From positions 2,566 through 66,565 of IMG/VR virus record IMGVR_UViG_3300047390_000093: a stretch of 64,000 nt of DNA, one strand, 5' to 3'. Both the position numbers and the translations under genes were made by a program. Below are positions 31,190 to 55,706 of the stretch, piece by piece. A model generated the notes under the pieces. The model saw nothing but the letters and a program-made list of their open reading frames with translations, searched no databases and was not told the DNA's origin. The first letter of the stretch is position 1; every line of letters begins with the position of its first letter. The stretch is from a virus. Lineage: Duplodnaviria > Caudoviricetes.

Positions 31190-31200
31190 GGAGTAACACA

Positions 31201-34374: not shown

Positions 34375-34375
34375 A

Positions 34376-34939: not shown

Positions 34940-34988
34940 GATTGCATTGCTCCGCAACTATATTCAACGGGGCACAACTACCAAATGG

Positions 34989-35020
34989 AGGACCACGGAC
35001 ATCAACACCGTGGTCCTTTT
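34989..35020 (+). terminator. intrinsic terminator
   Basis: AGGACCACGG-N9-CCGTGGTCCT then TTT. Confidence 0.7.
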
Positions 35021-35040
35021 GTATCAAAGAAAGAAAGAGT

Positions 35041-35658: not shown

Positions 35659-35666
35659 GATTCACA

Positions 35667-36368: not shown

Positions 36369-36799
36369 CAGCAACAGATAAGTTATTGGCAGTGCTTTCG
36401 CAACTGCCGAGTTCAATTCAATGGAATGAGACAAGCCAGACTGTGTATCGTGTAGCGATAACTGGGTGTAATGATGCCGATATTGTTTATGGATTACGGC
36501 GCATTCTTACACGTGCTAAGTTTCGACCAACACCGTCTGAGGTATTACTTGCTATTGCAATTGAAAAGTATGGCGATAAGTCACCACAGTCAGTCACAAA
36601 TGACATTGCTGAAGCAATACGCCTTGGTACTCCATACCACAAGTTGCATCCAACACTTCAGCATGTTGTAGCCAAGACTGGTGGACTAAAGGCATGGAGA
36701 GTAGAGCCTGCAGTCAAGGGGCAGCAGTTACAAGATGTGATTAACGATGTCTTACTAGTAAGGATAACGGAGTACATAGATGAACAACGCGCCGAATAG
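36365..36799 (+). CDS. putative helicase loader
   Basis: Between initiator and DnaB. KFRPTPSEV motif seen in phage loader-like proteins. Confidence 0.5.
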   Translation: MTATDKLLAVLSQLPSSIQWNETSQTVYRVAITGCNDADIVYGLRRILTRAKFRPTPSEVLLAIAIEKYGDKSPQSVTNDIAEAIRLGTPYHKLHPTLQHVVAKTGGLKAWRVEPAVKGQQLQDVINDVLLVRITEYIDEQRAE

Positions 36800-38159
36800 A
36801 AGCCTTGGTTTCAATATAGAGATCCCATCGGACGTTATGAGTGAGCAATCACTTATAGCGTCTGTTCTTCTTGGTGGGAAGAAGTTATATAAGAACGTTA
36901 CTCATATAGATAAGAGTATGTTCTATAGGGTCTCACATAGTCTTATATGGGAGGCGTATACAGCTATTGATGCATCTGGCCAAGACATAGATATCGTGAC
37001 CGTGAATGAGGAGTTAACAAAGCGTAACGCACTTGAAGCATGTGGCGGTTTAGCTTACATCATGCAATGCGCAGAACTGTTACCAACCACTTCTAACTAT
37101 GAGAGTTATGTCAAGCTAGTCATTGAGTATCACAGACGCAGAGAGATTATCTTTGCATCTGAACATGCTAGTAAGAGAGCATCTATAGGTGACGATGACA
37201 TTGAGATAATCTTGAAGGATTTAAATAACTCTGCTACGTTTATCAATTCCGGAAACTCAACAGATGATTTATCTAAATTAATATGGGATACAACCAACGA
37301 GGCTATACTCAGAGATGAAGACAAGTTGGACTTCTCGATTGCTTCAGGTTACAACGACGTAGATTCAATTACAGGAGGGTGGCGCAATGGAGAACTAATA
37401 ATACTTGGTGGCAGACCATCAATGGGTAAGTCTAGTCTTGGATTGCAATATGCATGGAATGCAGCTAAGTTCATGAGGGGCTTAGAGGACAAGACCGGGG
37501 TACTTATTATTAGTGCAGAGATGTCAAAGGACATGGTCACTGCACGTATGTTGTCAATCTACAGTGAAGTGGATAGTCAAGTTATACAGACCAAGAAGCT
37601 GAATAACTATCAGAAGGATCAGTTACACAACGTAGCTAGAGAGGCTAAGACACTTCATGTTAGGATTGTCGCAGATAAAACTGTCACCCTTGGAGGAATA
37701 CGTGACGCAATTAGAGATACCCAAAAATCATTTAATGTTGGCTTGGTGGTTGTTGATTACTTACAGATGATCGCAATGCCTAGTTCGTACAAGTCTGAGA
37801 ATAGAACTAGGGACATTGGTGTAATTAGTCGTGGGCTTAAAGATATTGCACGTGAGTTTGCGTGTCCTGTCATTGCACTATCTAGTCTCTCTCGCGCTGT
37901 AGAGCAACGACAAGACAAGCGCCCAATGATGTCTGATTTACGAGAGTCTGGTGATATCGAATCAGACGCAGATGTCATACAGTTCATATATCGTGCTGGC
38001 TACTATGAAAAGAAGAATGAAGGAGATTATGAGGAACCATCTGACAAGGCTGAAGTTATAACTGCTAAGAACAGAAACGGCAGAACCGGGGTGTCACTAC
38101 TTGAGTTCCAACCCCGGTTTGCTAAGTTTACTGACTATGGGCTAGACAGTCTTCTTTAG
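36780..38159 (+). CDS. dnaB: replicative DNA helicase
   Basis: EQSLIASVL, GGRPSMGKS, SAEM, VVDYLQM, RPMMSDLRESGDIESDAD, KNRNG. Confidence 0.96.
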   Translation: MNNAPNRSLGFNIEIPSDVMSEQSLIASVLLGGKKLYKNVTHIDKSMFYRVSHSLIWEAYTAIDASGQDIDIVTVNEELTKRNALEACGGLAYIMQCAELLPTTSNYESYVKLVIEYHRRREIIFASEHASKRASIGDDDIEIILKDLNNSATFINSGNSTDDLSKLIWDTTNEAILRDEDKLDFSIASGYNDVDSITGGWRNGELIILGGRPSMGKSSLGLQYAWNAAKFMRGLEDKTGVLIISAEMSKDMVTARMLSIYSEVDSQVIQTKKLNNYQKDQLHNVAREAKTLHVRIVADKTVTLGGIRDAIRDTQKSFNVGLVVVDYLQMIAMPSSYKSENRTRDIGVISRGLKDIAREFACPVIALSSLSRAVEQRQDKRPMMSDLRESGDIESDADVIQFIYRAGYYEKKNEGDYEEPSDKAEVITAKNRNGRTGVSLLEFQPRFAKFTDYGLDSLL

Positions 38160-38921
38160 ATAGACTTTCTTTTGGTCACTATTGACGATGCAATCAAGAT
38201 CAAAACTACGAGCAAGATCTCTGATTGTTGCATACGATTTACCGTCTCGTATAATACATTGAACGGCCAGTGGCTCACCATTGAGTACTGGCCCATCTTC
38301 CCAAGCCAGTACAATATTGTCCCCAGCGACAAGCCGAACAAAGTCACGCACAGGCGCGTAAGTCTTTCCGTTCTGCAATAAGGCAACAATGTGGTTGTCT
38401 CCATATACAATCTTCCAATCCTGCCCAGCTTGAATCAGTGACCAAGGTCTAATAAATCGAACAATATCTTTGTTGCGATTTCCATACAATGATCGGTGGG
38501 CTACTTCATATCCATTACGACTACCATCATTATTACTGTTGCCCTCAATGGATTTCCAGACACCATCCTCATCACGACCTTCAACAATCCCAATATGAAA
38601 TGCATCTTGCCTTCCATTTTTCAATGTCTTTACCAAGATAACTAAATCACCTGCCATTGGAGTTGTATGCAATACTCCATGCTTTCTAGCAACAGCCAGC
38701 CAGACATCGCAGTCTGCACTAAAACATAATGGCCAATCCAATCCACTTTTATTTTCCCACTCAGCTGCAATCCCGCTAACAAATGACGCACACCAAAAGC
38801 TACCTATAGGTGCATTAACTAGTGTGTTCCATCGGTCAATCATTGGGCCACAGTTGCTTCCAACGGGTTGCTCAGAAACCCCTATGTACTTCTGAGCAAT
38901 CTCGACAAATTGCTTTATCAT
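38142..38921 (-). CDS. endolysin: CHAP amidase plus copper-amine-oxidase-N-like tail
   Basis: WCASFVS (Cys), HIGIV (His), IEGNS. Two GKTY/GKSY-x-x-(V/I)RD repeats in the C-domain. Confidence 0.78.
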   Translation of the reverse strand: MIKQFVEIAQKYIGVSEQPVGSNCGPMIDRWNTLVNAPIGSFWCASFVSGIAAEWENKSGLDWPLCFSADCDVWLAVARKHGVLHTTPMAGDLVILVKTLKNGRQDAFHIGIVEGRDEDGVWKSIEGNSNNDGSRNGYEVAHRSLYGNRNKDIVRFIRPWSLIQAGQDWKIVYGDNHIVALLQNGKTYAPVRDFVRLVAGDNIVLAWEDGPVLNGEPLAVQCIIRDGKSYATIRDLARSFDLDCIVNSDQKKVYLKKTV

Positions 38922-41900
38922 CTTCCTAACATCTTTCCTGTAGTAAGATCACCCGGTAGGTTAATCTTAGCCGGAGGCATACGCTTCTTAACTTCGTCAG
39001 TCATAACGCCCTTATTAACTCCGCTCTCCTTCATGACTGCTCGATCAGGGAACCCCATCATTGGCTCAGATTTATTAAAAGCTGGAATTGTGTCGCTGTA
39101 TCCACCACTTTCCGGAACACCTTCAATTAATGACATCCATCCATGATTGGCAATCATATTGCTTGCATTTGGATAAGTGTATTTCTTAGTACGAGCTATG
39201 TAGTTATATGCCTTGCCGGACATAGTTCCCATCTTTCCCTTTTGCAATTCATCCATTAGATAGTAGTCGTTAAACTTAATGTCCTGTCCAAATGGACGAA
39301 TGAAAGCAGGGATAGCATACGCACTATAATCACCACTTGCGCTTTTACCTGTATTGCGCAACGTATATTCAGCCCACGCCATTGCTTCTAAGTCTCGCAA
39401 TGCATTTTGAACCTGCAGGTTTTGCGTTAACGATATGAATGATCGAGACAATCCATTTGGTGCTCTATTCAATAAATGCATTGCCCATGCAGTTGGCTGA
39501 CTATCAAACAGACCAACCTTTTTAAAAACAACGTCTATATTTTTTAGCTCTGCATTAATTCTGCGCAACTCTTTTCCGTTGTTCTCGTTTTCGGCAATGC
39601 GTTTCTCATCGTATAAAGCATCACGCCGTTGTACTAATGTACGGAACTGCCTTAAACCAACATCCTTTTGATACGCAGGTAAATCAGTAAACGTGCGTCC
39701 GTAAGCCATTTGCTTCATTAACTGTATTTGAGGCCCTAATCGATTTGCAAAGTTAGCTTGCCACATTTCTCTTGCAAACTTTGCTGCCTTATCTGGTGCG
39801 CTTAAACTTGGCTCATTAGCCGCAGCAATTAACGGACTTACGAATGTACGTTTAATAACTGTCGCTGTCTGTGGTAACGCAAACTCTAATGTGTTACCAG
39901 CACGGACAACACCATAATTGTTTTTAGAGTCGATAGGGTTCCACCATTGCTTGTTATCGAATGAAAGTATGTCGTCAACTCGTTTACCTTGAGAATTGTA
40001 TACAGGACTCATAACACGTCGCCAATCCATAAAATCAATAGGATCATGTTCCATATACTCATGTAACCTACGCTTATCCATATACATACCCAACGCTTGG
40101 AATGCTGTGCCTAACATTGCAGTTGCACCAAGAGCACTTGCACCAGTTAAAATATGTTGTTGTAATACTTCCTTGGTGCGTAATGAGCTAAACCATTTTT
40201 CTTCAGCAGATGCGTCAGCAATATCCCAGCCAACATGGAATGGATCAAGTCCACGTGTTGCAGTTCTACTAACAACATTAATTCCATCAGCCATTAATTT
40301 CTTGACAGCAGCTGGTGCATACCACTGCATCATCTGGGAGTCAAACCAGTTTGGCGATGTATACAGTGTACGAGCGTGACTATTAAATGATCGCTGTGCA
40401 TCACTCATTAACCAGTTTGTGCCAGATGGATTACCTGTAACGACATTAATAAATGTTGCGTAATCACGTTTTGCTTGAGCCTTTTGGAACGGCTTCATAA
40501 TCGTGTTGTTATCAATGTATGTTGCAAATTCCAAAAATGACTTAACACGTAGGATGTCAGTTGACAATGCACCACCGCGTTCAAACTGGTTTACGAACGG
40601 TAGTATTCTACGAGCAAGAAGTCCATCACCAAGGTTTTCAGCTTGTGTTGGCTGAATAGACACATCTTCTGGTAACAATGATGGGTCCAACAACTTACGT
40701 TGATTGTATGAATCAAACCAGTCACCATAAGTTGTCTTTAATCCATACTGTGCCAAATCATTGAAGTCATAATCCTGCCTAACTTCACGAGATGCTGTAC
40801 CCGGAATGATTCCATAGTTCAATCTATTGCCAGCAGTACCGTACTTAGTAAGGTAGTTATACATCTTAGCGTGATACTGCTTATCTCCAAATGCTAAGTC
40901 TGGTCTGTGCGCAAATGACATTGCTGCAAGTTGACCAGCCTTGCTCATTGGTCTAGCTCTTCCACCAGAAAACCACCATAAGTTTGGAAGTAATGCAGAT
41001 AGACCCCAGAACTGTGCAGCAAAATTCTTGGGATTTAATGCTGTCAACCTAAAGTTCTGCAGCATTGGCCTAGCAAAGTCAACAGACAAAACTGCCGCCT
41101 TCATTAAACTTGTAAGCTCATGATATCCACCTAAGATGAATCCACCACCACGTTTTGTAAAGTTGACTGGCCCATTCATAAGTGTATGAGCTGCACCAGC
41201 AGGTAGATTTTTTAATGCATCTACTGGTGTACTTGGTCCGGTAGGTCCATCAGCACTAAACATAGTGCGAACAGTGTAATCATAATCGCTATCTGGAATA
41301 GTGATGTAAATACTGTCATTCTTTACAGCCATCGCAACGTGTTGCATATTTGGATTAGCCTCACGTTTTACAACAACACTCTTTGGTGGTGGGACTGCAT
41401 AAGCTCTTTGTAAAGCCCAGTTAAATTGTGTTTCCTTATACTGTCTAACTAAGTCTGGATTTTTCATATCCTCCGGACTCAAAGTTAATGGAAGATCAAA
41501 GTACGCCCTCTCTGTCTCAGACATAGCTTCTAAGTCTGGTTCATGATCAGCACCATCACTCAACCACGTTCGTTTACGGTTATGGTAAACGTCTGTAGAT
41601 GACAACGCACTGTCAACATATGCCTCATTCTGTGGTCCAGATAACCGCATATATGAGGCACTCTTCTGTGCGTTCGATTTCTTCCATGTAGAAGGAATAG
41701 ATGTGTCACCGTTAATTAACGCACGTGCAACTAACAACTTGGCTATCATAACCTCACGTGGAATGATTGCAGTATTAGTAGCATTACGTATCGCATTTGG
41801 ATCTGCATCAGGATTATTAGCAAATGCTAAACGCATCAAGTGATTGATCGCTTGTGTTTGTAAGCGTTGATTGTTTACAATCTCACCATCATCCTTGGTG

Positions 41901-44900
41901 TATTGAGATTTATAACCGTGCTTGAGAGGTACTAATGTAACTTCTTCACTAGGGTCATAAGCGTAGGACCTGCGTCCACCTTCAGCTATTGGCTTTCGAC
42001 TTACACGGAAGAAGTTTAAGCCGGGTTGGGTTTGATTGTTGTCAATACCAAATGGGCGAATGATATCAATGCTATCCGTAGATGAACTAATTAAATCATT
42101 GTATTCACGAGAAGTAAGAAACACATCGCCAATTTCTCTATTGAATGCATTTTTCTTCATGTCATCTGCTCGCATACGAACAGGTGTGTGCTCAGGATTG
42201 TATAACGCCATTGTCCTACTAAATGGCGAATGATCAAGAATCTGATCTCTTCCAAAATCAAATGCAGCACTTTCAACAAAGTTCTCAGGGTTATTTAAAT
42301 TAACTCTATACAGAGCACCTTCTTTATCCCGGATAATGACAGCGTCATTTGTAGGGAATGACTTCTCTCCTACTAAAGACCAATCTTTCCATGCATATAA
42401 AGCTCTGCCGATCTCACGACTCTGAGCATCAAGAGCATGAGAAACCGACATGAATTCAGCATAAGCACTGTTACGTGCATGCATAGCATTTTGGTAATTA
42501 GTTGCTGCTTCTGGGTCGTTATCTACATCACCATAATCATCTGGGTTTGTTGATGAAGACAACCGATCTAAGAAGTTTGCTTTACCTGCTACAGAATTCC
42601 CATATACAACATTCATCAATGTGTCTAATACATACGCACTAGTCATTGGTTTTGATTGTTGTAAATCTAAATCAGATTTTAATTCTCCCGTTTCAAGTAT
42701 TGGCCCAATGACATTGTCATAGAAATTAGTTGCACGAGTGGCAATATCCATTGCGTCAACATTGTTGATTGCTAATTTCTCATTACGTAATAGGTTATGT
42801 ACTAAGTCTGTAGTTTGGAATTCACGACCATCTTGTAAGGTCACTGTTGTAGGAATGTCATACTTTGACATGATGCTATCTAATCGCTCACGCCTATCAG
42901 CGCGAATACTTCCACGTGTGTTGACTTCAGAATATGCATTAATCAACTTGGTTCTCAGAACATTTAAATCTTCGGAACCACCAAGCATAGCTTGGAATAC
43001 TGAGAACATAGCCTCCTGTTCAGGGCTACCCTGTTGAATAATCCAACTGTTAGTCTGTACAGCTTGATTGCGATCATGTCTAAATAAACCATTGTCTGCA
43101 ATGTATGGTGATAGAACCGTACTAATTGCATTGTCAAGTCTGGACACAAAAGCTTCACCTGCTTCAGTTGGAACAACAGTTCCATCATCAAGTTTAACCG
43201 AGTATCTATTGCTTACGATTTGATCTAAAAGTGCATCAAATTGATTAGCTCCGTCAATAATTTGTGGCTGCATAGACATACGTGTAGCAGACACAGCCTT
43301 GTATTCAGGACTTGCAAAGTAGCGATCAAGCGATTCACCTAATGGAACCGATGTGCGCATTGTAAAACTGCTTGCGTTATTGGAGAGCAGTCGCTTTTCT
43401 AAATCAAGTTGTTTTTTCCATCGGACATTTCCAACAGCATCATACAAAACTGTATTAATTTTTCGATGCGTATCATAAATGAGAGCCGAAAACTTAGGGT
43501 CAAACTCTTGAGTGTAGCCAACTAAAATTGGGTCGTAAGTACTTCTGTTCTGTTCCGCAAATGCTTTTTCACCAACTAAGAATCTAACCTGTGATCTAAA
43601 TTCTCTGTCACCAACAGTAATTACAGCTGGTGCTTCAACTACATAAGCATATTCATGCTGACCAGCAATAGCATAACGGTACGCTTTAGGATCTTCTGTG
43701 TTAGCACGTAATCGCGGAACAAACCAACCATCGTTATCAGTTTCTCCACGTACCCACGTATTAACTCCGTCGTAATACGCTGGTTCATAGCCAGTTAAAC
43801 GAGCCTGTGATGGGGATTGAGTCGTAGTCTTTGCAATCATATCTACAACACGACCCGTGTATTCCTTGGTTGGCATACTTTGCGGGCTAATAATGCGTGT
43901 GTTGTATCGATTCTTAAATGGGTTAACTTGTACAGTTTGTATTAACCCCGGATTCTCAAGCAAGTACCTACGCAACGTAGGGTCAGAGAATGGCAGGTGA
44001 ATAGATTGATCTCCAACAGTATGTTGGAAACCAAACATGTAAGGACTACCACCAAATTCAATGTCATTAGCCTGAACACTTTTAATTGAACGCATCATTT
44101 GAACTGGGCTAACAACTTCCGATTGCATTGTGTCGCGAGTTGGCACAGACACACGTAAGAAGTTACCCTTTTGCATTTGAGCAAAGTTTAATTCTCTGTA
44201 AAAAGGTCCACGTGGAGTATCAACACGACCAAAGATATAGTCTTGGTTCAAGTGCGTCTGTGGAAGCGTGTACTTCTGCATTGGTACTGGCATATACCAT
44301 GCAGCATGTGGAGAACCCTTCTCGTCGTAAATAACATCTAATGGATGTTGATTATGAATCTGGCGCATGACATAACGTAATGTCGAACGCATTTGCTGGA
44401 ATACAGATAATGTAGCACTATCAATGGATGCTGCAGCATTCCTACTTTGAACAACCGTGTAGTCTGTAATGAAGTTCAACATGCCTGTCACAAATTTTTC
44501 GTGACCATGACTGATCCATCCGTTCGCTAAATCCTCACCACGATACGTAATACCAGACAACGGCTTCAATGCATCTTCTAAGGTCTTAGCTTTACCAGAC
44601 ATTAATGCTTCACGTGCAACTTTAATTTGAAGAGCTAGTGCCATTTCCGGATTATTGAATCTATCAATTTGTTTTTGCACTGCTGGCTTACCAGCTTCAA
44701 CGCGTTCTGCTACGGATACTCTATCTGTTGAAGAAATAGTTCTAGCTAAACGACCTAACTCGTCAGTCATTGTTTGATCCATGAGTGATGAACCAGACAC
44801 TAATGAATCTAAGAATTCAACCTGTGTGCTGTCAGCCATACCCGTAAACAACGGGTGGAACATCTCGTGTGTAAGTGTAAGAGCAGTTCGATATGGACTG

Positions 44901-47900
44901 TTTTTCTTACTGCCAATATAGATCAATGACTTAATCGCACGTCCTTGGTTATGAGCCAACGATTGAGTAAATCCAAACACATCACGCTTATCAGCAGTTA
45001 CACGTCGAGCGGTCGCTCCAACTTCATCAAGCAAATCCTGATTGGTGATCAAAACCTTATTGTGTTTGGTGTAATAGTCTTTCTTGTATTTTGCAGTTAG
45101 GTACGTCAATGCATAATTCTTCTGTTCTGGGGTCACACTTGTTCCAGTTAAGAATAGGTTTACATTAACTTGTGGTTGTAAGAAGTCATTTAATGCGGAG
45201 TTAGAAACACCAGTTATTCTTAATGCCTCGGCAACCTCATCCTTAAACTCACGTGAATGATTAGCACTTAACTTTATTGCTAGTTGTTCACGTGCATAAC
45301 TCAAAGCATTAATGTCATACATTGCTGCTAAGTTATCAGCATACTCCTCCATTGCAGCTGCTTCATTAGCCTTAGAAACTTTTTGCCTAACAGCAATGAC
45401 GTCTCCACCAGTTTCAGCATGTTTTGTGTATGCATCCTTAATACTAGTTAGCGTTTCAATAGTACTTGCGTTATCTGGCGTAGCAGGTATTCCATCAATC
45501 ACTCCTGAGTACAGCGTACTTAACCGACCCGCCATCTCTGGCGATACCTGCGTTATGACATGAGGGACATAACCTAAGTTGATTTTGGAATGTGCTTCGT
45601 TTAAACTTGAATAATCTACACTGGCAAATGAACTTTCAGATGAAAGACGTAGTGGGATTCCAGCTTGTTTTAAAGATGCGAGTATACGTCGTGCAGTAAA
45701 TGCAGGATCAGCACTAGTAGATATAACAGGCCTTGCTCCTATATCAGCCAGTCTAGTTGTCGAATTACGAACACGCGCATTTGTATCTGGATTAATGTCC
45801 TTTAGAATCCCTTGCACAATCTTCATTGCGTCATCTGGTGATTCTCCATTTAGAAGGTTTAATCTCTCAACTGCCCTATTCGCCCAAACATCATAGTACT
45901 CAGATACTTTACTTCCCGGATAACCACGTATGTCAGGCATATTCTTCAGTAAATCTGCTGCAACCCTTAGTGCTTCATAAGCTGGATTGTTTTTACTTGT
46001 TGCCGTGTATCTAGTAACAGTACTCTTTATGATTCCGTCTATTAATCCAGCGACATCATCATCAATGGGTAAGTCCAAGAACTTTCCACCAACTGCCTCT
46101 AACTTATCGGCAATATACATTGGTGATACGTATGTGTCATTGACTAATTTAGTTACGGTGTCTCCTGAACGACTTAGTACTTCTGTTGCGTGTTGTGCAT
46201 CCGCGTCACTAAATGCCTTAGCCAACATGCTACGCATTAAGATTCGCATGCCCTCAAAGTTTTGAGCACTATAAGCAACGATCTGATCATCAGGAGATTC
46301 AATCATTCCATCAAAGGCGTTTGGCCCTTGTGATTTAACAAGCTCCTGAACAATATCTGGTGAAGTAGAGACAAATGCTCGCATGTCATCTGGAACTTGG
46401 TCAATGTTCCCAAATGTCATGTCTCCATCATTTACAATAGTTGGCTCTGTATCTTCAACCTTGTTGTACGCATCTACCCTTGCAATTAACTCAGCTACGT
46501 TTTGACTAATGCCATATTGATTAGCAAATACTTCTGGTCGCAAATCGCCTGCTTGTAAACGTATGACATCAGATAATGAAGCACGTGCTATCACATCGGA
46601 CGTTGTGCCAGAAACTCGCAATCGCCTGACGCTGTCTTCTAGCATGATATTTTGCGCGGCATATGTAACTGTCAAGTCATTCTTGATGCTGTTACTAATC
46701 TCGGAATCTGATGGGAGTAACGATGTAAACTTTCCATAAACAGAAAGCATTACATCCATGCCGATTTGATCAGATGACACATCACCTAATAATTTGATCA
46801 CTCGGTTAATAGCATAATCGTAATTTTCATACATAAACCGACGATCGTTTGTTGTGCCAGTATTCTTTAAAGTCTTACGTTCTTGTGCAAGTCTAGCTTG
46901 CTCAGCATTCAATTGTATTTGTAGAGACGTAGCTTCTTCTGGTGTGGCAGACGCAATTTTCGACGTTAATGATTTTATTCGTTCTTCAATAAGACGTATG
47001 TCTGTGCCTGTTACATCTGTGACACTAGTCATTACTGGTTCTGTATCAGCAGACATTGCATCAAACGATGTTGTAGTACTTACTTGATCTCTTCGACTGA
47101 TTGCACTTTGCAAATCATTCAGGACATCAAACACAGATGTTACTGCAACATTTAAATCTGAATTGTCATATACAGAATAAGAGCCATCATCTTCAACCTC
47201 ATATCTGAATGAAGTGTCTGACTCATTACCTGTCATAAACGCCGCTGAAATCTGCTCTGTTTCATCAGCATCAGCAGGACGCTTAACTGGCGGTTGTACT
47301 TCTTTTATTATTCCGAGCGTATCTCTAACTGACGCTATTCGACTATTAAATGTATCGATGACAAACGTGTCAAGTTCATCATATAACGCCGTGATTTTAT
47401 CTGCGTTTAATTTACGGTCTTTTTTTAAATCATCAATGCGCTCCCTGATGCTTGTAAATCTAGGGTCTGACTCAATAAATGAAACAATTGATCGTAAATC
47501 TGTGTTGGTCGTAAATATTTTACGTGCGTTATTTTTAAAAACCTGCACGTATACTTCGTGCGCACGTATTTGCGCCTCTGACATTGACATGCCTGATTCA
47601 CGTGCAGCTCGTGCGGTAGATTCTCTATATGCTTGATCAGCACTGGCAACACGTAGGTTGGCAGGTTGATCTTTCTTTATCTCGCCATTAACTTCTACGT
47701 CACTAAACAAACGTAATTGTCGCTTGCCATCTTTATCGTATGCTCTAAGTAATTCAATTTCCTGATCACTAAGAGAATCAAGTAGCTCATTAATTCTATT
47801 TACTTTGTCAATAGCAGCCTGACGCTGTGTCTCTGGTATACGAATATCACCAGCAATGCCATCTACAATTTGCTGATACATACCTCTAATTTCTGGAGCA

Positions 47901-50900
47901 AACGAGATGTTATTAGTTTGGTCTGTAGTTCCAGTCCCATCTACCATGAACTGACCAGACAGAATTTTAGCGTTAATAGTTTCAATTGCTACATCTGGTA
48001 AGTACGTATCGTACATATAGGACACAGATGCTCGATGCCATTCAGAAGCAGCCTGTGGATTATTCTGAATTAATCGACGTGTTGTTGCTGATGTAACATC
48101 GGATGCCATGTGATACAAGAACTCAAGTCCTAGTGTACGTAAACGTGCATACACGATGTCACGCATTTCGTAACGTTCCGTATCACCATCACGGAAAGTC
48201 TCAGTGCGAGTCTCCTTTAAAAGACCTCTTACATCACGAACAGCTTTGTCAAACTTATCTTTAGACTGCCAGAATTCAGCTGCGCTATCAGGAATAAATC
48301 TGTCAGCTTTAATTTGAGCGACAATATCTGGCATTCCTACTGCAGCAATAGCGCGGCCCAACGTAGCTTGTGATGCATGGCTGGCTGCAGATAACTTATC
48401 CACGTGCCACTTATCCTGTATGTAGTAAAACACGTGAGGTGCAATACCACGCAGTTGCTTAGCTAGATTAATAACCTTGTTTGACTCAACAGTTTTTGGA
48501 TCAAAACCAAGGCTTGTCAACGCCCTCTTAAAAATATCTGCATCCGTACGTTGACCGGCATTAAGCATTAACAAGTTCATTCGACGGGCAATTTGTAATG
48601 CTTCCGTTCGTTTTGCTATTGTTCCGAATTGTGGAAGTCTGTCACCAGCAGCAAACAGCGTACCAAATTTAGGGTCAATAGACTGATGTACACTCATAAT
48701 CCTGTAAAGCAACTCATTGAACGCTTCATCAGAATACACAGCCATCGCCTTGCTAAATGTGGCAATATCAACCTCTTTACCCGGTGCGGAGAGATCTGAA
48801 ATTACTTGAGCGATTGCGTCCTGCACATCCTCAACATTGTTACGCATTGCCCACTCAAGAAGACCACGCTGTATACCAGCCGGAGTTGCTCTTGTATTGA
48901 CAATAGCTTCACGTATATTGGTAAATAAGTCTTCTGGTTTTGAAGATGCAATCTGTGTTCCTACGTCAACGTTAGCTGTATATGCTAAGTACTGTGCGAT
49001 TGCAGCTTCGTCTGCGCTGGTAATAGCAGCTGGTCTGGCAAATTCACCTGTTGTATCCGTTGGTGATTTTGATTGTAGTACATCTTCTGCCTGATAACTT
49101 TCAGATAATGCAAACCTATCAGCAGATAGTGTGTATGCTGGGCCGAGAGGGTCATCCTTAAGTTTTACAGTAGCAACACCATTGTCTGCTTCAACAACTA
49201 CACCTTCAGATACATCACGCAGACCAGCATCCGCAGTGCGGAATACAACTCGGTCACCGGGTTTAAGTGTAACGTCAGCAACAAACTTGTTGTTTTCGGC
49301 ATCATAACGCAATGCCTTATTCCCAGACATCATCTCGCCAGACATGTCAGCGACGACACGTTGTACTAACATCTCAGCCTTTTGACTATCTGGTATCTCC
49401 ATGTCAAGAATGGCTCTGAATACGTCGCCTAAGTCTGGTGTAATCTCTAACTTAGAAGGAACGCCAGTACCATAAATGTCAGCTTCGATATATCCTGCGC
49501 CATTTTCAATAAAGTCATTTGCGCTTTTAATAACAGAACTAGTAAACAGTTCCGGCGTAGACGATGCAGACGATTCGTTTAGTACAGGTAATACCTCTGC
49601 GCCACCTTCTGGCGTTGGGCCAAATACAACAGATCCATCAATTAACTGATAGATACCTATTGGCATGGTTAATCCAGAGGATGCAATCAAACGTCCGTTC
49701 ACTAATTCGCCAGTTGCTATATTGACTTGTGTTGGGAAATTATCACCAGTTTCTGATGTTGGTAACGGTGATGAATTACTTGTAGTTCGACTTAACTTTG
49801 TGCGTGTATACAAGTCGTCAAGGACAGCCAGTAATGCTCTATTCTCTCGGCTAAGTTCCTTTTGCACTTGATCGAACGACATGTATGTATAACCAACATC
49901 AGCGTTACGACCAGCCTTCTTGGTTTTAACAATAATAGTTCCATCTTTGCGGATACCACCAATAGCCTTAATGACGCCATCTCTTGTCCACTGATTTTGC
50001 CGTGAATTAAAATCACGCTTTAAACCAGCAACGCTATTTGCAAGAGTTTCTATACGAGCTTGCGCCTTCTGTTTATTAACATCAACAGAATTAATTATCT
50101 GGACATCTTCCAGCCCATCATCACCACGATGTAACGTAGCGTCACTAAAGTATTTGTTGTAGACGATGTATTCATTAACACCATCAACGTTGCCTCTAAG
50201 CACACCAAAGTATTGCTTGTCTGGTGTTGCAACTTCTGCTGGCTCTACAGACTCAAGTGTCTGGCCAGCATTATACATATCGTATTGCGCTTGAATAACT
50301 GGTCGTAAAGTCTTGCCTAGTTGATTAACTGCTTTTGCTTTGCTAAGTGGGGTAACGGGGAATAAAGCAGGATTAACAGCCAACGTAGATAGTGGACTGT
50401 CAAATGGCAATTTACTGTTGTCGCCACGCACACGCATCTGACGAATCATATTGTCTACGTTGTAACTTGATTCGCTCTTATTATTTATGATGTCAAAGAA
50501 GATTGCATCCAGCGACTTGAATGTTGGCGAGTTGCGATCTTGATTAACAAACTCTTGTGCTGCTGTTTCATACACATAACTTGTAATACGTTGTAAGTCT
50601 TGACTGTTTGCTTCTTGCCCACCAGTAAGTACGCCAAATCTAGCATTGACACCAGTTGCGTGATACCCACCACGTTCAACCATATCCTGTGCATAGAACT
50701 TAGTCTGTGCTGCTATGTCTACGCCTCGCCCTAATTTATTCCCAATAAATCCTTGTAATCCCTTAGCTGGCCTAACAGCAACAGCCGCCATGGTTAAGTT
50801 GGTTAACCAGTCAGTAACAGTTGGTGCTTGAACTTCGGGGTTAAAATTTGAACCAAATTGTCTTGCAACAGGATCAAACACGTTTGATAAACCAAATGCA

Positions 50901-52522
50901 GCATCACCAGCAACACCAGCTTGAAGTGAATAGTAATCCATCAACATCTTCTGTCCCTCGACAGACGCAGGATTTACTTTAGCCACACGGCCAAACACTC
51001 CAAGTTTTCCAAGGTCCCTACTTAATGAGAATAACTTAGTTGCATCTTTATAAAACTGATTTGCACCACCACCAAACATACCTAACGTCATGGCTAATTT
51101 CTGTGCGCCAAAACCTTCACTCTGTTCGGTCTGCTGTTTTAAGTCGTACTCACCTTCTGGTAAACCAATCTTTCGTGTGTACTCAATAGGGTTCCCAAAG
51201 TTGCTAATTATCTCACCTTTAGAACCACGCTTCTGGTCACCAAATCCAGCACCGACAGCTTGGACTGCACCGGGAAGCATCATGCCTCCCATCCTAGCTG
51301 CGTTAAGTGCAGTACTTGTTTTAATAGCTGGCAACAATGCGCGAGTAACAGCGTTACCAACGATCTGCATGCCAACAAGGTTGCTGCCAGCCAAAGGAAC
51401 TTGCTCAATAATATTCATTGCTGAGATACGAGCAACTTGCCTGTCTAGGTTTGTAGGATCACCAGTTAAATCTGTGTACCATTGATTAATACCAAGGTTG
51501 TCATAAACTCGTTGAGCTTCATCAGTAGATTGCCCGTATAGACCAGCAGTAGCCTTCGCACCAATATTTCCACCAATAATTGCTGGATTAACAACACCCT
51601 GCAATGCTCCTGCACCACCACCAAAATATGCTTCCTCAAGAATTCCAGTGTCTTCACCAGTCTTCTCTAAACGAGCACGATAATCTTTTTCAAGTTGATC
51701 CATGGACTTCTCTGTACCCATGGCTTGAGCAGCCCAACTAAACGGATTGTATGTTTGATTTAATCTCTGAGCACCGCCAGCAAGCATCCCTCCAACTGCA
51801 GTAGCTCCTGCTAAGTTTTCCTTAACGCCCTGTGGTACTCGTGTCTGTGTTATTTTCTCATCAGCTAACTGACGGCCTAAACTTAATTTGCGTAATGCCC
51901 GATCGTTTTGTGCATCTCCCGGTTCACTCCTATAGTTCCTGCCAGATCTTAAAGCTGGGGCTGGAACCACTGCTCCGGATGGTGTTTGTACTTTAAGTCT
52001 CTGTGCTTCAACGTGTCGTTTACTAAACTGGTTAATAATATTGTCTCGTGTCTGTTTATCGATTAAACCTCCACGGAAACCATCCTCAATTAACTTTTCA
52101 TTCTCATCATTTAGTACACGAATATAATCAGGACTCTGAAGTGATTTGACCAGTGGGTCTAATACAGATGTTCTATACGTTGCACTTTCTTGCTTAATAC
52201 GTTTAAGCATTTTTTCATTTTGAGATATGTCATATGCGGGACCAAACTTAAACGCTCTACCGCGAACGTTGCCACGAACATCATCTTCAGCAGCCACTCT
52301 AGCTGCCAATAATGCACGTGTTGGAGAATCAGGATGCCATTTTCCTAACTGCTCAGCTCTTTTTCGTGCATCCTTATAATCAGGAATGCCAAAGTCATCA
52401 AACCAAAAACGAGAGGTCGGATTTTGACCGCCTCCCATTAATGGATATTTTTGTCTAGCTTCTGTTTCGCTTAAAGCGTTACTACGTAAACCAAGATTAT
52501 AAAGAGAAGATCGATCTGGCAT
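38918..52522 (-). CDS. giant 4534-aa putative internal virion/ejection (polyvalent) protein
   Basis: 13.6-kb uninterrupted ORF at the ejection-protein position. G/A-rich hydrophobic N-region, SH3-like segment, HEMFH zincin motif. Confidence 0.7.
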   Translation of the reverse strand: MPDRSSLYNLGLRSNALSETEARQKYPLMGGGQNPTSRFWFDDFGIPDYKDARKRAEQLGKWHPDSPTRALLAARVAAEDDVRGNVRGRAFKFGPAYDISQNEKMLKRIKQESATYRTSVLDPLVKSLQSPDYIRVLNDENEKLIEDGFRGGLIDKQTRDNIINQFSKRHVEAQRLKVQTPSGAVVPAPALRSGRNYRSEPGDAQNDRALRKLSLGRQLADEKITQTRVPQGVKENLAGATAVGGMLAGGAQRLNQTYNPFSWAAQAMGTEKSMDQLEKDYRARLEKTGEDTGILEEAYFGGGAGALQGVVNPAIIGGNIGAKATAGLYGQSTDEAQRVYDNLGINQWYTDLTGDPTNLDRQVARISAMNIIEQVPLAGSNLVGMQIVGNAVTRALLPAIKTSTALNAARMGGMMLPGAVQAVGAGFGDQKRGSKGEIISNFGNPIEYTRKIGLPEGEYDLKQQTEQSEGFGAQKLAMTLGMFGGGANQFYKDATKLFSLSRDLGKLGVFGRVAKVNPASVEGQKMLMDYYSLQAGVAGDAAFGLSNVFDPVARQFGSNFNPEVQAPTVTDWLTNLTMAAVAVRPAKGLQGFIGNKLGRGVDIAAQTKFYAQDMVERGGYHATGVNARFGVLTGGQEANSQDLQRITSYVYETAAQEFVNQDRNSPTFKSLDAIFFDIINNKSESSYNVDNMIRQMRVRGDNSKLPFDSPLSTLAVNPALFPVTPLSKAKAVNQLGKTLRPVIQAQYDMYNAGQTLESVEPAEVATPDKQYFGVLRGNVDGVNEYIVYNKYFSDATLHRGDDGLEDVQIINSVDVNKQKAQARIETLANSVAGLKRDFNSRQNQWTRDGVIKAIGGIRKDGTIIVKTKKAGRNADVGYTYMSFDQVQKELSRENRALLAVLDDLYTRTKLSRTTSNSSPLPTSETGDNFPTQVNIATGELVNGRLIASSGLTMPIGIYQLIDGSVVFGPTPEGGAEVLPVLNESSASSTPELFTSSVIKSANDFIENGAGYIEADIYGTGVPSKLEITPDLGDVFRAILDMEIPDSQKAEMLVQRVVADMSGEMMSGNKALRYDAENNKFVADVTLKPGDRVVFRTADAGLRDVSEGVVVEADNGVATVKLKDDPLGPAYTLSADRFALSESYQAEDVLQSKSPTDTTGEFARPAAITSADEAAIAQYLAYTANVDVGTQIASSKPEDLFTNIREAIVNTRATPAGIQRGLLEWAMRNNVEDVQDAIAQVISDLSAPGKEVDIATFSKAMAVYSDEAFNELLYRIMSVHQSIDPKFGTLFAAGDRLPQFGTIAKRTEALQIARRMNLLMLNAGQRTDADIFKRALTSLGFDPKTVESNKVINLAKQLRGIAPHVFYYIQDKWHVDKLSAASHASQATLGRAIAAVGMPDIVAQIKADRFIPDSAAEFWQSKDKFDKAVRDVRGLLKETRTETFRDGDTERYEMRDIVYARLRTLGLEFLYHMASDVTSATTRRLIQNNPQAASEWHRASVSYMYDTYLPDVAIETINAKILSGQFMVDGTGTTDQTNNISFAPEIRGMYQQIVDGIAGDIRIPETQRQAAIDKVNRINELLDSLSDQEIELLRAYDKDGKRQLRLFSDVEVNGEIKKDQPANLRVASADQAYRESTARAARESGMSMSEAQIRAHEVYVQVFKNNARKIFTTNTDLRSIVSFIESDPRFTSIRERIDDLKKDRKLNADKITALYDELDTFVIDTFNSRIASVRDTLGIIKEVQPPVKRPADADETEQISAAFMTGNESDTSFRYEVEDDGSYSVYDNSDLNVAVTSVFDVLNDLQSAISRRDQVSTTTSFDAMSADTEPVMTSVTDVTGTDIRLIEERIKSLTSKIASATPEEATSLQIQLNAEQARLAQERKTLKNTGTTNDRRFMYENYDYAINRVIKLLGDVSSDQIGMDVMLSVYGKFTSLLPSDSEISNSIKNDLTVTYAAQNIMLEDSVRRLRVSGTTSDVIARASLSDVIRLQAGDLRPEVFANQYGISQNVAELIARVDAYNKVEDTEPTIVNDGDMTFGNIDQVPDDMRAFVSTSPDIVQELVKSQGPNAFDGMIESPDDQIVAYSAQNFEGMRILMRSMLAKAFSDADAQHATEVLSRSGDTVTKLVNDTYVSPMYIADKLEAVGGKFLDLPIDDDVAGLIDGIIKSTVTRYTATSKNNPAYEALRVAADLLKNMPDIRGYPGSKVSEYYDVWANRAVERLNLLNGESPDDAMKIVQGILKDINPDTNARVRNSTTRLADIGARPVISTSADPAFTARRILASLKQAGIPLRLSSESSFASVDYSSLNEAHSKINLGYVPHVITQVSPEMAGRLSTLYSGVIDGIPATPDNASTIETLTSIKDAYTKHAETGGDVIAVRQKVSKANEAAAMEEYADNLAAMYDINALSYAREQLAIKLSANHSREFKDEVAEALRITGVSNSALNDFLQPQVNVNLFLTGTSVTPEQKNYALTYLTAKYKKDYYTKHNKVLITNQDLLDEVGATARRVTADKRDVFGFTQSLAHNQGRAIKSLIYIGSKKNSPYRTALTLTHEMFHPLFTGMADSTQVEFLDSLVSGSSLMDQTMTDELGRLARTISSTDRVSVAERVEAGKPAVQKQIDRFNNPEMALALQIKVAREALMSGKAKTLEDALKPLSGITYRGEDLANGWISHGHEKFVTGMLNFITDYTVVQSRNAAASIDSATLSVFQQMRSTLRYVMRQIHNQHPLDVIYDEKGSPHAAWYMPVPMQKYTLPQTHLNQDYIFGRVDTPRGPFYRELNFAQMQKGNFLRVSVPTRDTMQSEVVSPVQMMRSIKSVQANDIEFGGSPYMFGFQHTVGDQSIHLPFSDPTLRRYLLENPGLIQTVQVNPFKNRYNTRIISPQSMPTKEYTGRVVDMIAKTTTQSPSQARLTGYEPAYYDGVNTWVRGETDNDGWFVPRLRANTEDPKAYRYAIAGQHEYAYVVEAPAVITVGDREFRSQVRFLVGEKAFAEQNRSTYDPILVGYTQEFDPKFSALIYDTHRKINTVLYDAVGNVRWKKQLDLEKRLLSNNASSFTMRTSVPLGESLDRYFASPEYKAVSATRMSMQPQIIDGANQFDALLDQIVSNRYSVKLDDGTVVPTEAGEAFVSRLDNAISTVLSPYIADNGLFRHDRNQAVQTNSWIIQQGSPEQEAMFSVFQAMLGGSEDLNVLRTKLINAYSEVNTRGSIRADRRERLDSIMSKYDIPTTVTLQDGREFQTTDLVHNLLRNEKLAINNVDAMDIATRATNFYDNVIGPILETGELKSDLDLQQSKPMTSAYVLDTLMNVVYGNSVAGKANFLDRLSSSTNPDDYGDVDNDPEAATNYQNAMHARNSAYAEFMSVSHALDAQSREIGRALYAWKDWSLVGEKSFPTNDAVIIRDKEGALYRVNLNNPENFVESAAFDFGRDQILDHSPFSRTMALYNPEHTPVRMRADDMKKNAFNREIGDVFLTSREYNDLISSSTDSIDIIRPFGIDNNQTQPGLNFFRVSRKPIAEGGRRSYAYDPSEEVTLVPLKHGYKSQYTKDDGEIVNNQRLQTQAINHLMRLAFANNPDADPNAIRNATNTAIIPREVMIAKLLVARALINGDTSIPSTWKKSNAQKSASYMRLSGPQNEAYVDSALSSTDVYHNRKRTWLSDGADHEPDLEAMSETERAYFDLPLTLSPEDMKNPDLVRQYKETQFNWALQRAYAVPPPKSVVVKREANPNMQHVAMAVKNDSIYITIPDSDYDYTVRTMFSADGPTGPSTPVDALKNLPAGAAHTLMNGPVNFTKRGGGFILGGYHELTSLMKAAVLSVDFARPMLQNFRLTALNPKNFAAQFWGLSALLPNLWWFSGGRARPMSKAGQLAAMSFAHRPDLAFGDKQYHAKMYNYLTKYGTAGNRLNYGIIPGTASREVRQDYDFNDLAQYGLKTTYGDWFDSYNQRKLLDPSLLPEDVSIQPTQAENLGDGLLARRILPFVNQFERGGALSTDILRVKSFLEFATYIDNNTIMKPFQKAQAKRDYATFINVVTGNPSGTNWLMSDAQRSFNSHARTLYTSPNWFDSQMMQWYAPAAVKKLMADGINVVSRTATRGLDPFHVGWDIADASAEEKWFSSLRTKEVLQQHILTGASALGATAMLGTAFQALGMYMDKRRLHEYMEHDPIDFMDWRRVMSPVYNSQGKRVDDILSFDNKQWWNPIDSKNNYGVVRAGNTLEFALPQTATVIKRTFVSPLIAAANEPSLSAPDKAAKFAREMWQANFANRLGPQIQLMKQMAYGRTFTDLPAYQKDVGLRQFRTLVQRRDALYDEKRIAENENNGKELRRINAELKNIDVVFKKVGLFDSQPTAWAMHLLNRAPNGLSRSFISLTQNLQVQNALRDLEAMAWAEYTLRNTGKSASGDYSAYAIPAFIRPFGQDIKFNDYYLMDELQKGKMGTMSGKAYNYIARTKKYTYPNASNMIANHGWMSLIEGVPESGGYSDTIPAFNKSEPMMGFPDRAVMKESGVNKGVMTDEVKKRMPPAKINLPGDLTTGKMLGR

Positions 52523-52561: not shown

Positions 52562-54484
52562 TTACTTTTTCTTCAATGGTTTGCCATTCTCGTCAAGGCC
52601 ATATGATTTAAGTTCTTCTACAACTTGATCTTTCATAGTCATATAGAAATTAGTGGCTGGAGCATCAGCATCTGCAAGATCCTCTCCAGCAGCAACTTCT
52701 GCAGTTCGCGATTGTTCAACACCATATCTAAATCCAGCTAATTTAGCTAGAAGAGTTTTTACTCTAAACTGCCTCACAACAGCTTGTGGATTCTTAACTG
52801 CTAGTGTTGGACTGTACTCCATTGATAGCGCGGCAGCCAATTTATTAGCAATAATTCCTGCAACTGTTGTGCCAATACTTGCTGGAAATCCTTGTTTTGT
52901 TGTCTGTGGATAGATTCCAAGTTGCGTAAACTGATTGGGGTCATTAAGTCTTGAGGCAGCCATAATTTCATCGTACTGTAGTTTAATACCAGTAACCGCA
53001 GTCTGTACCTGTTCCTGTGCAGCAGCAATTTCGCCCCCTCGAATTTGTTTGGTAGCTGCATCAACCGCTCCTCGTGCACCAATTTCAGCAACTCTAATTC
53101 TAGTTGCTCTTTCCATCGCATCGGAAAAGATCCTTTCGCCTCTTTCAATTTCTTTATCTATTCTTGTTAAACGTCCTTCATTAGCAGTTATTTGCTGACT
53201 ATTAATGGCTAGAATATCTTTTGGGTCAGCAGCAACATACTGAGACATGGCAGATATGACTGGTTCCATATTAGCTGGCTTCTGATCTTTACCCTCACTG
53301 TCAATAATCCAGTTAGCTTGATCTTCGCCAAATAACTCTTTTTGTATTACGTCAAGAGATATGTCTTCACGAGACGCCATAGAGCGCAATGTCCGCCTGA
53401 TGTCAGGCATAATACGAGGAATCATTTTTCCATACGCAACCTGAGTAGGTAATGTCTCAGGTTTAATGTTTCCTTTTTCGTCTCGTTCAATATCAGGTAT
53501 ATCACCGGGCGTAATACTCTTACTGTAATTACGATCTTGTAGAGTTTTTACTAATGTTGCGTAATCAGCAGGTGTCATCTTACTCGCAGTTGCAACAGGA
53601 TTAGGGACACCCATTTCAGCAAGGAATGAAACAATATCCTGCGGTAATCCAGTTTGTGGTGGAGATGCCATTGGACCAGCTTGAGCATTATTTGGAAATA
53701 ATGCACCAGTCGTTAGAGGCCCACCAGTAGGAGACCCTTGCGTAGGCAATTCAGTTGGCGGTAATTGCTCTGCTGACTGATTAGGGATTGTTACCCCGCC
53801 AGCGTTAAGCATTGCCATTAACTCTGGAGGCAAACCACTACCTTCTGATGGCTGTTGAGGCAACGGTTGAGTACCAGATGGTAAACCCTGACCAATACCA
53901 GCAGGTTGTTGTTGTTGACCAAATGTAGTTGGTCCACCTACTTCACCAATTAAACTTGAGTATGGCGATCCAGCCGGTGAAGCATTGTCGTCAAAGTTAA
54001 TTAAACGTGTTCGCTCTTCAGGTGACAGGGTTAATCCATCTAAGCCAAGTTCAAATTCACGTCGTCTTTTAGTTCTGTTTGACTGTATTGCTGCAATTTG
54101 TGCTTGAAAACTTGCTTTATCGGCTGGTGTTTTAGCTAATGCAAAACCGCGAGTTAACTCAGGTAGCTTGGCTTTGTCTGCGAGTTCAGCATTTATAACA
54201 CTCTGACGCATTTGAAATGCATTTCCGTAGTCACCCTTTTTAGTTTTCTCTAAACCTAAACGGGCTGTTTCTTCATTAATGCCACTCAATCGCTGTTGTG
54301 CATCAAAGGCATCTTTATTTCTTTGATCGAGTTTATTCTGCCGTTCAAGCTCGCGGTTTTCTTTGGCAAAGCCAAGGCTCATATCTAATGTTTTGCTGCG
54401 CCTAGCCTGTGATTCCTGTTGGCCTTTACTAAGAGTATCTAGGAAACCCAGTATTCCACTAACACCTGATTGTCCGAATTTCAT
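52562..54484 (-). CDS. putative ejection (internal core) protein
   Basis: Coiled-coil N-terminus, P/Q/G-rich linker, position between pilot-like and giant genes. Confidence 0.55.
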   Translation of the reverse strand: MKFGQSGVSGILGFLDTLSKGQQESQARRSKTLDMSLGFAKENRELERQNKLDQRNKDAFDAQQRLSGINEETARLGLEKTKKGDYGNAFQMRQSVINAELADKAKLPELTRGFALAKTPADKASFQAQIAAIQSNRTKRRREFELGLDGLTLSPEERTRLINFDDNASPAGSPYSSLIGEVGGPTTFGQQQQPAGIGQGLPSGTQPLPQQPSEGSGLPPELMAMLNAGGVTIPNQSAEQLPPTELPTQGSPTGGPLTTGALFPNNAQAGPMASPPQTGLPQDIVSFLAEMGVPNPVATASKMTPADYATLVKTLQDRNYSKSITPGDIPDIERDEKGNIKPETLPTQVAYGKMIPRIMPDIRRTLRSMASREDISLDVIQKELFGEDQANWIIDSEGKDQKPANMEPVISAMSQYVAADPKDILAINSQQITANEGRLTRIDKEIERGERIFSDAMERATRIRVAEIGARGAVDAATKQIRGGEIAAAQEQVQTAVTGIKLQYDEIMAASRLNDPNQFTQLGIYPQTTKQGFPASIGTTVAGIIANKLAAALSMEYSPTLAVKNPQAVVRQFRVKTLLAKLAGFRYGVEQSRTAEVAAGEDLADADAPATNFYMTMKDQVVEELKSYGLDENGKPLKKK

Positions 54485-54493: not shown

Positions 54494-55252
54494 CTAAGCC
54501 GGGCTATTTTTCTTGTAATAGTCTGTTTGAGCTTTATACAAATCACGCTGCATTCCAAAATCACGGTCAGCATTTATTTGGTTAAGGTACTGACCACCAA
54601 GTTGACCAAACATTCCAGAAATCTGATCACGTTTATTCTGTAATGCAGCATCTCGTTCCATCTCTTGTTGTGCTTCACCCATGTATTGACCATACATGTT
54701 GTTAGCCATTCCAGATGCTGTATTGAAACCTTGGTTAGCCTGTCCTTGGTATTGGTTATATGCTTGTCCTGCCATACCCAATGCTCTATTACGACGTTCA
54801 TCAGCACCTAATGTGTACTGCATTGCGCCTTGCGCTACTGCTTGGGATATTGGACTATTAAAGAAATTATCCTGCATCATATTCCCAGTCATACCAGCAC
54901 CCATATTTAACTGGTTACCCATCTGGTTGTATCTAGCTTGAGCTTGTGCTGCATTGCCAGTAATAGCACCCATCTGAGAACCAGCTTGGCGTAACATAGC
55001 ATTAGTCGCATCTGGGTTATTGAGACGTTCCATCTCATTTTGAATGCCGCGACTATACATGCCTGAAAAATTATTGGCTGTTGATTGATTTTGTTGCGCT
55101 AATCCATACTGTTGATTCTGGATATTTTGATTAAACATTCTCTGTTGAGATAGTTGCGACTGGTATGGATTATTTTGTTTTTTAAATAATCCGCCCGCCA
55201 TATTCCCAAGAAATTGTGCACCTAAACCTACTGCATATGCTGGAAGTGGCAT
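54494..55252 (-). CDS. putative DNA pilot/ejection protein (P22 gp7-like composition)
   Basis: N-terminal hydrophobic GLGAQFLG..AGGL, Q/N/M/G/A-rich helices. Confidence 0.6.
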   Translation of the reverse strand: MPLPAYAVGLGAQFLGNMAGGLFKKQNNPYQSQLSQQRMFNQNIQNQQYGLAQQNQSTANNFSGMYSRGIQNEMERLNNPDATNAMLRQAGSQMGAITGNAAQAQARYNQMGNQLNMGAGMTGNMMQDNFFNSPISQAVAQGAMQYTLGADERRNRALGMAGQAYNQYQGQANQGFNTASGMANNMYGQYMGEAQQEMERDAALQNKRDQISGMFGQLGGQYLNQINADRDFGMQRDLYKAQTDYYKKNSPA

Positions 55253-55262: not shown

Positions 55263-55706
55263 CTATTGCAATACGTACCATACGCCTAGACCGGATGAAT
55301 CTACTTGTGCGACTAATGTAACTGTTTCATATTGCGCTATTGGCCAAGCTTTTGCAGTAGCTTTGCCTAACGTATCGCCAGTTTGGGCAATAGCACTAAC
55401 TTGATTTGCCGTAGCATCTGTTTTGATTATATGTATAAATTGACCATTCGCATAGTACGCACGTGGCAAAGTCAATACTACCGCAGCTGAAGTAGCATTA
55501 ACCTGCAATATTAACTGCCCACTATCTAAAGTTGTGCTACTAGTAACACGTTGTGCAACAAAATTAAATGGTGCATTGACAGGGCTAAATGCACCCCTTT
55601 GTTGCACATTAGGGTTTATTATTGCTTTACTTTTACCGGGTCCAGACACACCACTAAGTGATGCAGCTGCTGAATCTGGTGTTGTTAATCCACCGGGTAA
55701 CGCCAT
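55263..55706 (-). CDS. small beta-rich tail-associated protein
   Basis: VVLTLP...G....IIKTD..AN.V...GDT...QYETVTLV...W pattern typical of tail/fibre modules. Confidence 0.5.
   Translation of the reverse strand: MALPGGLTTPDSAAASLSGVSGPGKSKAIINPNVQQRGAFSPVNAPFNFVAQRVTSSTTLDSGQLILQVNATSAAVVLTLPRAYYANGQFIHIIKTDATANQVSAIAQTGDTLGKATAKAWPIAQYETVTLVAQVDSSGLGVWYVLQ

Follow-up and report, generated by a model that had tools for sequence, protein, structure and literature searches.

The largest gene of an uncultured and apparently podovirus-like phage, which takes up 20.4% of a 66,565-bp virus record, probably encodes the biggest of its ejection (internal virion) proteins, a counterpart of T7 gp16 and N4 gp50. 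Short-tailed phages push proteins through a channel of about 35 Å ahead of their DNA, and the 3500-aa polymerase of N4 is, to our knowledge, the extreme case studied. The protein considered here (hereafter the giant) is 30% larger than N4's 3500 aa, in agreement with a preliminary description of this DNA that had put it above the N4 virion RNA polymerase (vRNAP). We favour, at somewhat better than even odds, reading it as an ejection protein that follows the N4/T7 scheme but lacks a recognisable polymerase, and that combines a zincin/MPTase domain with a conserved C-terminal module for handling; the 640-aa protein would be its co-adapted partner. The record comes from IMG/VR and is rated complete by CheckV; the stretch analysed, called the window below, comprises its bases 2566-66565 (64,000 nucleotides), and the features discussed are collected in Table 1.

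The giant is a real gene, since it has full-length relatives down to 25% identity and low dN/dS in all of its windows. These relatives (family 1) measure 4430-4536 aa and are 97%, 90%, 42-45% and 25-27% identical to it. dN/dS, calculated between close pairs, is 0.034-0.039 for the whole protein and stays within 0.01-0.09 in each window of 500 aa, and hence there is free spacer nowhere in the protein. The long ORF of the preliminary description is thus uninterrupted, kept in relatives and under purifying selection. AGGA lies about 10 nt upstream of its ATG, and neither internal repeats nor low-hydrophobicity (disorder-like) windows were found in it.

A prominent feature of the giant is the complete absence of cysteine, in all 4534 residues as well as in ten family-1 relatives. 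Cysteine makes up 1.1% of the other window ORFs of at least 100 aa, and the probability of finding none in 4534 residues is about 7e-23. The 147-, 252- and 640-aa proteins encoded just upstream of it also have no cysteine, here and at all related loci. Counted in the same way, N4 gp50 (3500 aa), gp51 (644 aa) and gp52 (150 aa) have none, seven other Schitoviridae vRNAPs of 3336-3819 aa have 0-1, and T7 gp15 and gp16 have none, while T7 gp13 and gp14 contain cysteine. Large ejected proteins could thus apparently be recognised by their lack of cysteine, although this lack is not specific to ejection, since the scaffold-position protein of the window is cysteine-free too. A second cysteine-free run, consisting of basic orphans of 217, 1795 and 401 aa (window 9182-16407, minus strand), lies just upstream of the terminase genes; together with the group of the giant it brings the cysteine-free residues encoded to about 8000 in total. 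For the 1795-aa protein of this run, Pfam gives no hit, and hhalign connects it neither to the giant nor to N4 vRNAP.

The giant shares its strand with genes for a terminase, a P22-type portal, a capsid-like protein and two SU10-type adaptors, and the order 1110 aa, 147, 252, 640, giant, CHAP is kept at every related locus. The giant is the last and largest of the late-gene run, in an order as in N4 and T7, and the ejectosome position assigned to it in the preliminary description therefore stands. In particular, the N4 order gp52 (150 aa), gp51 (644 aa) and gp50 (3500 aa) is mirrored by the 147/252-, 640- and 4534-aa proteins, and the 640-aa protein is a candidate tunnel former because its size and slot are those of gp51. 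By sequence, no link of the 640-, 252- and 147-aa proteins to N4 gp51 or gp52 was found with hhalign for the profiles compared, and searches of PDB sequences with the 1110-, 640- and 461-aa neighbours gave no link. The CHAP endolysin-like gene (38142-38921) is not of the ejected type, given its six cysteines. It is translationally coupled to the giant, stands last in the late operon, and its 3' end overlaps the DnaB gene, which lies on the opposite strand and is convergent. Among the Pfam-scanned ORFs of window 21800-38200 (plus strand), the only replication or nucleotide functions are DnaB, ThyX, a metallophosphatase-like protein and an HTH protein. The early region has more intrinsic-terminator-like hairpins than expected (9 versus 2.4), which agrees with the "terminator ladder" proposed there earlier, and two hairpins of window 22770-23754 (plus strand) have a common stem, GGAG(A)GGGCGCAAGCCCTCT. 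A sigma-70 promoter scan of the early region found 6 sites versus 4.7 expected.

The preliminary description had recognised no polymerase, helicase or methylase in the giant, and database searches lead to the same result. Pfam gives no hit at its cut-off, only four sub-threshold matches judged to be spurious (best E 0.0034, 16.6 versus 28.9 bits), and PHROGs and NCBIfam give none at all. Across ten diverse family members, Pfam returns 11 scattered sub-threshold hits, each in a single member, and no catalogued effector or LPD domain. A whole-length profile searched against PDB sequences yields chance hits only, with no polymerase at E<=1. Taken together, neither the family searches (Pfam, PHROGs, NCBIfam) nor the profiles run against PDB sequences and N4-type vRNAPs detected a polymerase, helicase, methylase, transglycosylase or lysozyme domain. 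As for individual domains, there is no Pfam RNA_pol hit for a T7-like single-subunit RNAP, and six regions of the giant compared by hhalign with the Schitoviridae RNAP reach Prob <=0.5%; likewise, Pfam shows neither SLT nor lysozyme. Further hhalign comparisons with the NTD, RNAP and C2 parts of N4 gp50 revealed no link. For CTD-C2 there was no hhalign signal, and the helical C-terminal model returned no N4 entry from a fold library extending to 2026-04-08.

Known polyvalent-protein domains do not account for most windows of the giant either, as only the zincin region maps to one. Language-model neighbours pointed to LPD38 (0.91), LPD39 (0.88) and LPD23 (0.92), but these were leads only, as HMM searches were negative: for LPD38, LPD23 and MPTase-PolyVal in the window's own genome, and for LPD38 and LPD39 in five related records. 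In Foldseek searches of viral models, E <= 1e-4 was reached only by pieces of two giants of uncultured phages (8e-29 and 6e-14), which carry the UniProt name [quoted passage not shown]; the same automatic name has been given to a member of the family, A0A6J5NHA4 (UniProt/BFVD). Two weaker, low-probability Foldseek hits, to LT_GEWL-domain and MuF-domain proteins, came from the poor model of residues 2300-3499. Nor are relatives easy to find. Megablast and tblastn searches of 50,697 phage records with both halves of the giant, tblastn with fragments of a second giant family described below, and a scan of genome contigs for prophage copies gave nothing credible, and a metagenome scan added one further locus. 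No close relative of this phage was found among cultured phages, the portal being at best 22-24% identical to actinophage portals. In all, about 85% of the giant is unlike catalogued proteins, and about 3800 of its residues have no assignable fold.

The exception is the zincin region. Every giant has exactly one HExxH (residues 2552-2556 here), which is invariant in 14 of the 14 giants examined from two families, and the zincin motif noticed in the preliminary description is thereby confirmed. In a MAFFT alignment, E2675 falls on the "NE" of N4 gp50 and of the second giant family, and thus fits the MPTase scheme, in which a Glu stands on the second helix after a variable insert (PMC5512222). 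When the motif region of family 1 was compared by hhalign with a CTD-C1 profile from nine Schitoviridae phages, the match covered 75 columns (Prob 79%, E 1.6e-5). Without anchoring on the motif and with C1 from eight phages, it covered 75-76 columns (Prob 84%, E 7e-6); six regions of the giant were set against the NTD, RNAP, C1, C2a and C2b profiles, and none of the other pairs among these 30 gave a signal. In a control with nine motif columns fixed and the flanks shuffled, the real score of 46.0 exceeded all 60 trials (mean 34, sd 2.2, maximum 45.4). In sequence, the giant resembles N4 over only some 76 columns that surround HExxH, and the second giant family, when compared alone with CTD-C1, matches in the motif only. 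PF18818 (MPTase-PolyVal) has no match at E<=10 in the window's genome and none in an hmmscan of 10 giants. AlphaFold models the HExxH segment as a helix and places E2675 in another (helix 370-390), both at low confidence; ahead of HExxH, where an MPTase should show a three-stranded sheet and an N-terminal helix, the model contains no beta-sheet or strands (pLDDT 25-46). The whole model of residues 2300-3499, built from a shallow alignment, is of low confidence and too poor for use. Because PF18818 is unmatched and the structural model is poor, we regard homology of the zincin region to the CTD-C1/MPTase domain of N4 gp50, as judged from profile similarity, as probable and not as certain.

The remaining parts of the giant differ in composition and conservation. 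G+A amounts to 24-28% in residues 201-600 versus 8-20% in most other windows, reaching 20-22% again in residues 2301-2400, 2601-2700 and 3701-3900; the G/A-rich N-terminal part of the preliminary description is thus real as a matter of composition. Because this composition resembles that of the N4 gp50 NTD, we propose by analogy that the N-terminal module may associate with membranes. No classical transmembrane helix is apparent in the first 700 residues, where the highest Kyte-Doolittle score of a 19-aa window is 1.35. Residues 621-1560 fall between the N-terminal module and the zincin region, the interval in which N4 gp50 carries its RNAP. The best-conserved stretch of the whole protein is residues 3801-4000, within the C-terminal module. 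An AlphaFold model of residues 3780-4534 (755 aa; a shallow alignment of 14 sequences) has pLDDT 60 and pTM 0.50 and consists mostly of helices, which bears out, as far as a model of such confidence can, the helical C-terminal region described earlier.

Table 1. The giant, its parts and its neighbours, in window coordinates
Feature	Coordinates	Strand	Remarks
Giant ORF	38918..52522	-	4534 codons, ATG start, 0 internal stops, 503 kDa, 0 Cys
N-terminal G/A-rich module, residues ~200-620	50663..51925	-	Moderately hydrophobic, among the best-conserved parts
Conserved dark region, residues 621-1560	47843..50662	-	Many invariant Asp/Arg/Gly
Acidic linker-like stretch, residues 1561-2000	46523..47842	-	Poorly conserved, 0-2 invariant residues per 50 aa
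Zincin/MPTase-like domain, residues ~2465-2720	44363..45130	-	hhalign versus N4-like CTD-C1, with shuffle control
HEMFH motif (H2552, E2553, H2556)	44855..44869	-	Invariant in both giant families
H2674-E2675, candidate third zinc ligand	44498..44503	-	E2675 invariant in 10/10 diverse giants
Conserved dark region, residues 2760-3750	41273..44245	-	Mixed strand and helix in a low-confidence model
C-terminal module, residues 3780-4534	38921..41185	-	Mostly helical (model); common to the 3.7-kaa giant family
CHAP-domain endolysin-like gene	38142..38921	-	Start overlaps the stop of the giant (ATGA); 6 Cys
640-aa Cys-free protein	52562..54484	-	Hyperdivergent together with the giant; candidate tunnel-forming ejection protein
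252-aa Cys-free protein	54494..55252	-	67-85% identity among relatives; candidate small ejection protein
147-aa Cys-free protein	55263..55706	-	

When 1.84 billion representative proteins were searched with a profile of residues 3350-4534, only 18 matched. Some of them lie outside family 1 and are giants 3710-3770 aa long with 0-1 cysteines. The loci of this second family (L017:10001-21277, L019:10001-21289, L021:10001-21130 and L022:10001-21136) encode giants of 3710-3763 aa, which occupy the same slot in sister phages whose DnaB is 84% identical to that of the window. They have no Pfam hit and are 27-32% identical between types. Common to both families are only the zincin region and the C-terminal 600-700 residues (a module of about 750). 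Family 1 has at least five types, family 2 at least three.

The giant and the 640-aa gene behave as one swappable cassette of deeply diverged alleles, which are only 17-50% identical even where the flanking genes of the phages compared are 84-100% identical. Across related phages more widely, the neighbours are 63-97% identical, the giant 25-49% and the 640-aa gene 25-36%; the last range applies between types, and the genes around the 640-aa gene are there 63-93% identical. For example, the loci L013 and L010 have DnaB 98%, two neighbouring genes 100% and CHAP 94% identical, and giants only 25%. Within one allele type, by comparison, L005 and L007 share 92% in the giant, 87% in DnaB and 94% in CHAP. 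Rapid divergence in place was considered as the cause of the low identities and rejected, because phages of one type differ no more in the giant than in its neighbours; the low identities thus reflect old alleles moved by recombination. The 640-aa protein always travels with the giant allele (L005, L009, L010, L013), which suggests that the two are a co-adapted pair, and a swapped cassette of ancient alleles fits co-adapted partners under diversifying selection driven by the host.

Three known systems help to place the giant. In N4 gp50, the C1 part carries HExxH, the NTD inserts into membranes, and the protein is ejected last, loosely folded like beads on a string, with its RNAP held between the N-terminal part and the zincin domain (PMC13434306); encapsidation requires the MPTase-bearing region (PMC5512222). 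Like gp50 (PDB 9PNR), the giant is a single cysteine-free chain placed last, after cysteine-free proteins of about 150 and 640 aa; it has a G/A-rich, moderately hydrophobic N-terminal part with hydrophobic segments of similar style and score, and it has an HExxH...E domain in its C-terminal half followed by a large helical region. The N-terminal module has no significant hhalign match to the N4 NTD. In contrast to gp50, the giant has no detectable T7-like RNAP domain and no similarity to the NTD or CTD-C2, is about 1000 aa longer and continues for about 1800 aa after the zincin, versus 1125 in N4; moreover, the portal of its phage is P22-like and the adaptors are SU10-like, unlike those of N4. 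T7 gp16 (internal virion protein D, which acts with gp14 and gp15) is likewise the last and largest of its run, and gp15 and gp16 are both cysteine-free, but the giant is 3.4 times longer, lacks a detectable N-terminal lytic transglycosylase domain and has no sequence similarity to gp16. With the phage-type polyvalent proteins (Iyer et al. 2017, PMC5512222) it shares very large size, a multi-part build, a late/packaging context and a zincin-like MPTase, and it differs from them in having no detectable catalogued effector or LPD domain. Through the probable homology of its zincin region to N4 CTD-C1, the giant belongs to a known class, that of giant cysteine-free ejected/polyvalent proteins, and our verdict is that it is a very dark form of the giant, presumably injected, polyvalent phage proteins. 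The earlier suggestion that its cargo may be new holds in so far as no known cargo domain was detected, and fails in so far as the protein is not unprecedented, its zincin region being probably N4 CTD-C1-like; a new cargo is thus a possibility rather than a finding.

We infer packaging, ejection, membrane insertion and proteolysis of the giant along the following lines. A few copies would be packed into the head, with the zincin region and the C-terminal module serving as the packaging or handling part, a role assigned by analogy because the MPTase region of N4 is needed for encapsidation. After the 147/252-aa and 640-aa proteins have built a conduit, the giant would be threaded, loosely folded, through the tail, and having no cysteine it could unfold, pass and refold without being trapped by disulfides. 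The G/A-rich N-terminal module might then bind the cytoplasmic membrane and the 640-aa partner, and the remaining residues, about 3900, would enter the cell. There the zinc site would cut the giant itself or host targets, and the dark regions would act on the host.

One may argue that a catalytic cargo, such as a virion RNA or DNA polymerase, is hidden in residues 621-2380 or 2760-3750, too divergent for sequence methods. The polymerase cargo of crAss-like gp66 was at first beyond the reach of such methods. In N4 gp50 the RNAP sits between the N-terminal part and the zincin domain (PMC13434306); the corresponding stretch of the giant is well kept, contains many invariant Asp, Arg and Gly and is under strong purifying selection; in addition, no DNA or RNA polymerase was seen among the ~31 of ~56 window ORFs scanned with Pfam. 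Yet, when compared by hhalign with N4-type RNAPs, no region of the giant exceeds Prob 0.5%; at E<=1, no PDB sequence matched by the whole-length profile is a polymerase; and there is no conserved triad of the DxDxD type, D2929 being invariant and D2931 variable. The excess of early-region terminators (9 versus 2.4 expected) is also a weak hint that this region is transcribed by the host RNA polymerase. A hidden cargo is thus an unlikely reading, and much the same can be said of the broader idea that the roughly 3800 constrained residues without assignable fold carry enzyme activities of a kind unseen in injected phage proteins, possibly, for example, a nucleic-acid polymerase or host-takeover enzyme unrelated to known families.

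It is also rather improbable that the giant stays in the capsid as an internal head protein, with an inner-core, genome-organising or scaffold-like role. Its huge size, its largely helical nature where modelled and its tight length range of 4430-4536 aa would suit such a protein, and the cysteine-free scaffold-position protein of the window warns that lack of cysteine is not peculiar to ejection. However, the gene order matches the ejection sets of T7 and N4, and a conserved metallopeptidase-type site and an allele cassette that co-varies with a 640-aa partner are more easily understood through contact with the host. The giant could also be an external tail fibre or adhesin, or a non-virion late protein such as an anti-defence factory; the location of the giant after the tail-region genes and its hyperdivergent alleles on conserved backbones, typical of host-range genes, point in this direction. 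But the giant is cysteine-free and helical, with neither internal repeats nor Pfam hits to fibre, Ig-like or beta-helix domains, and its Foldseek matches at E <= 1e-4 are giants of the "large polyvalent protein" type and not fibres, which makes this the least credible of the readings considered.

In summary, an ejection protein of the N4/T7 scheme remains the reading that we prefer for a giant that fills a fifth of its genome and is constrained over its whole length, with only about 5% of it tied to known proteins. It suggests that the N4-type layout of a zincin followed by a helical C-terminal part, of which the zincin domain alone is linked to N4, is not limited to Schitoviridae among injected giants, and that such proteins may carry passengers other than a polymerase. 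The cysteine-free rule, checked in N4, seven other schitoviruses and T7, offers a cheap marker for ejected proteins in metagenomes. Moreover, the cassette offers a natural experiment for finding out which ejectosome parts have to evolve together. If the dark regions do carry enzyme activities of an unseen kind, swapping would exchange one set of cargo for another, each suited to different hosts or defences.
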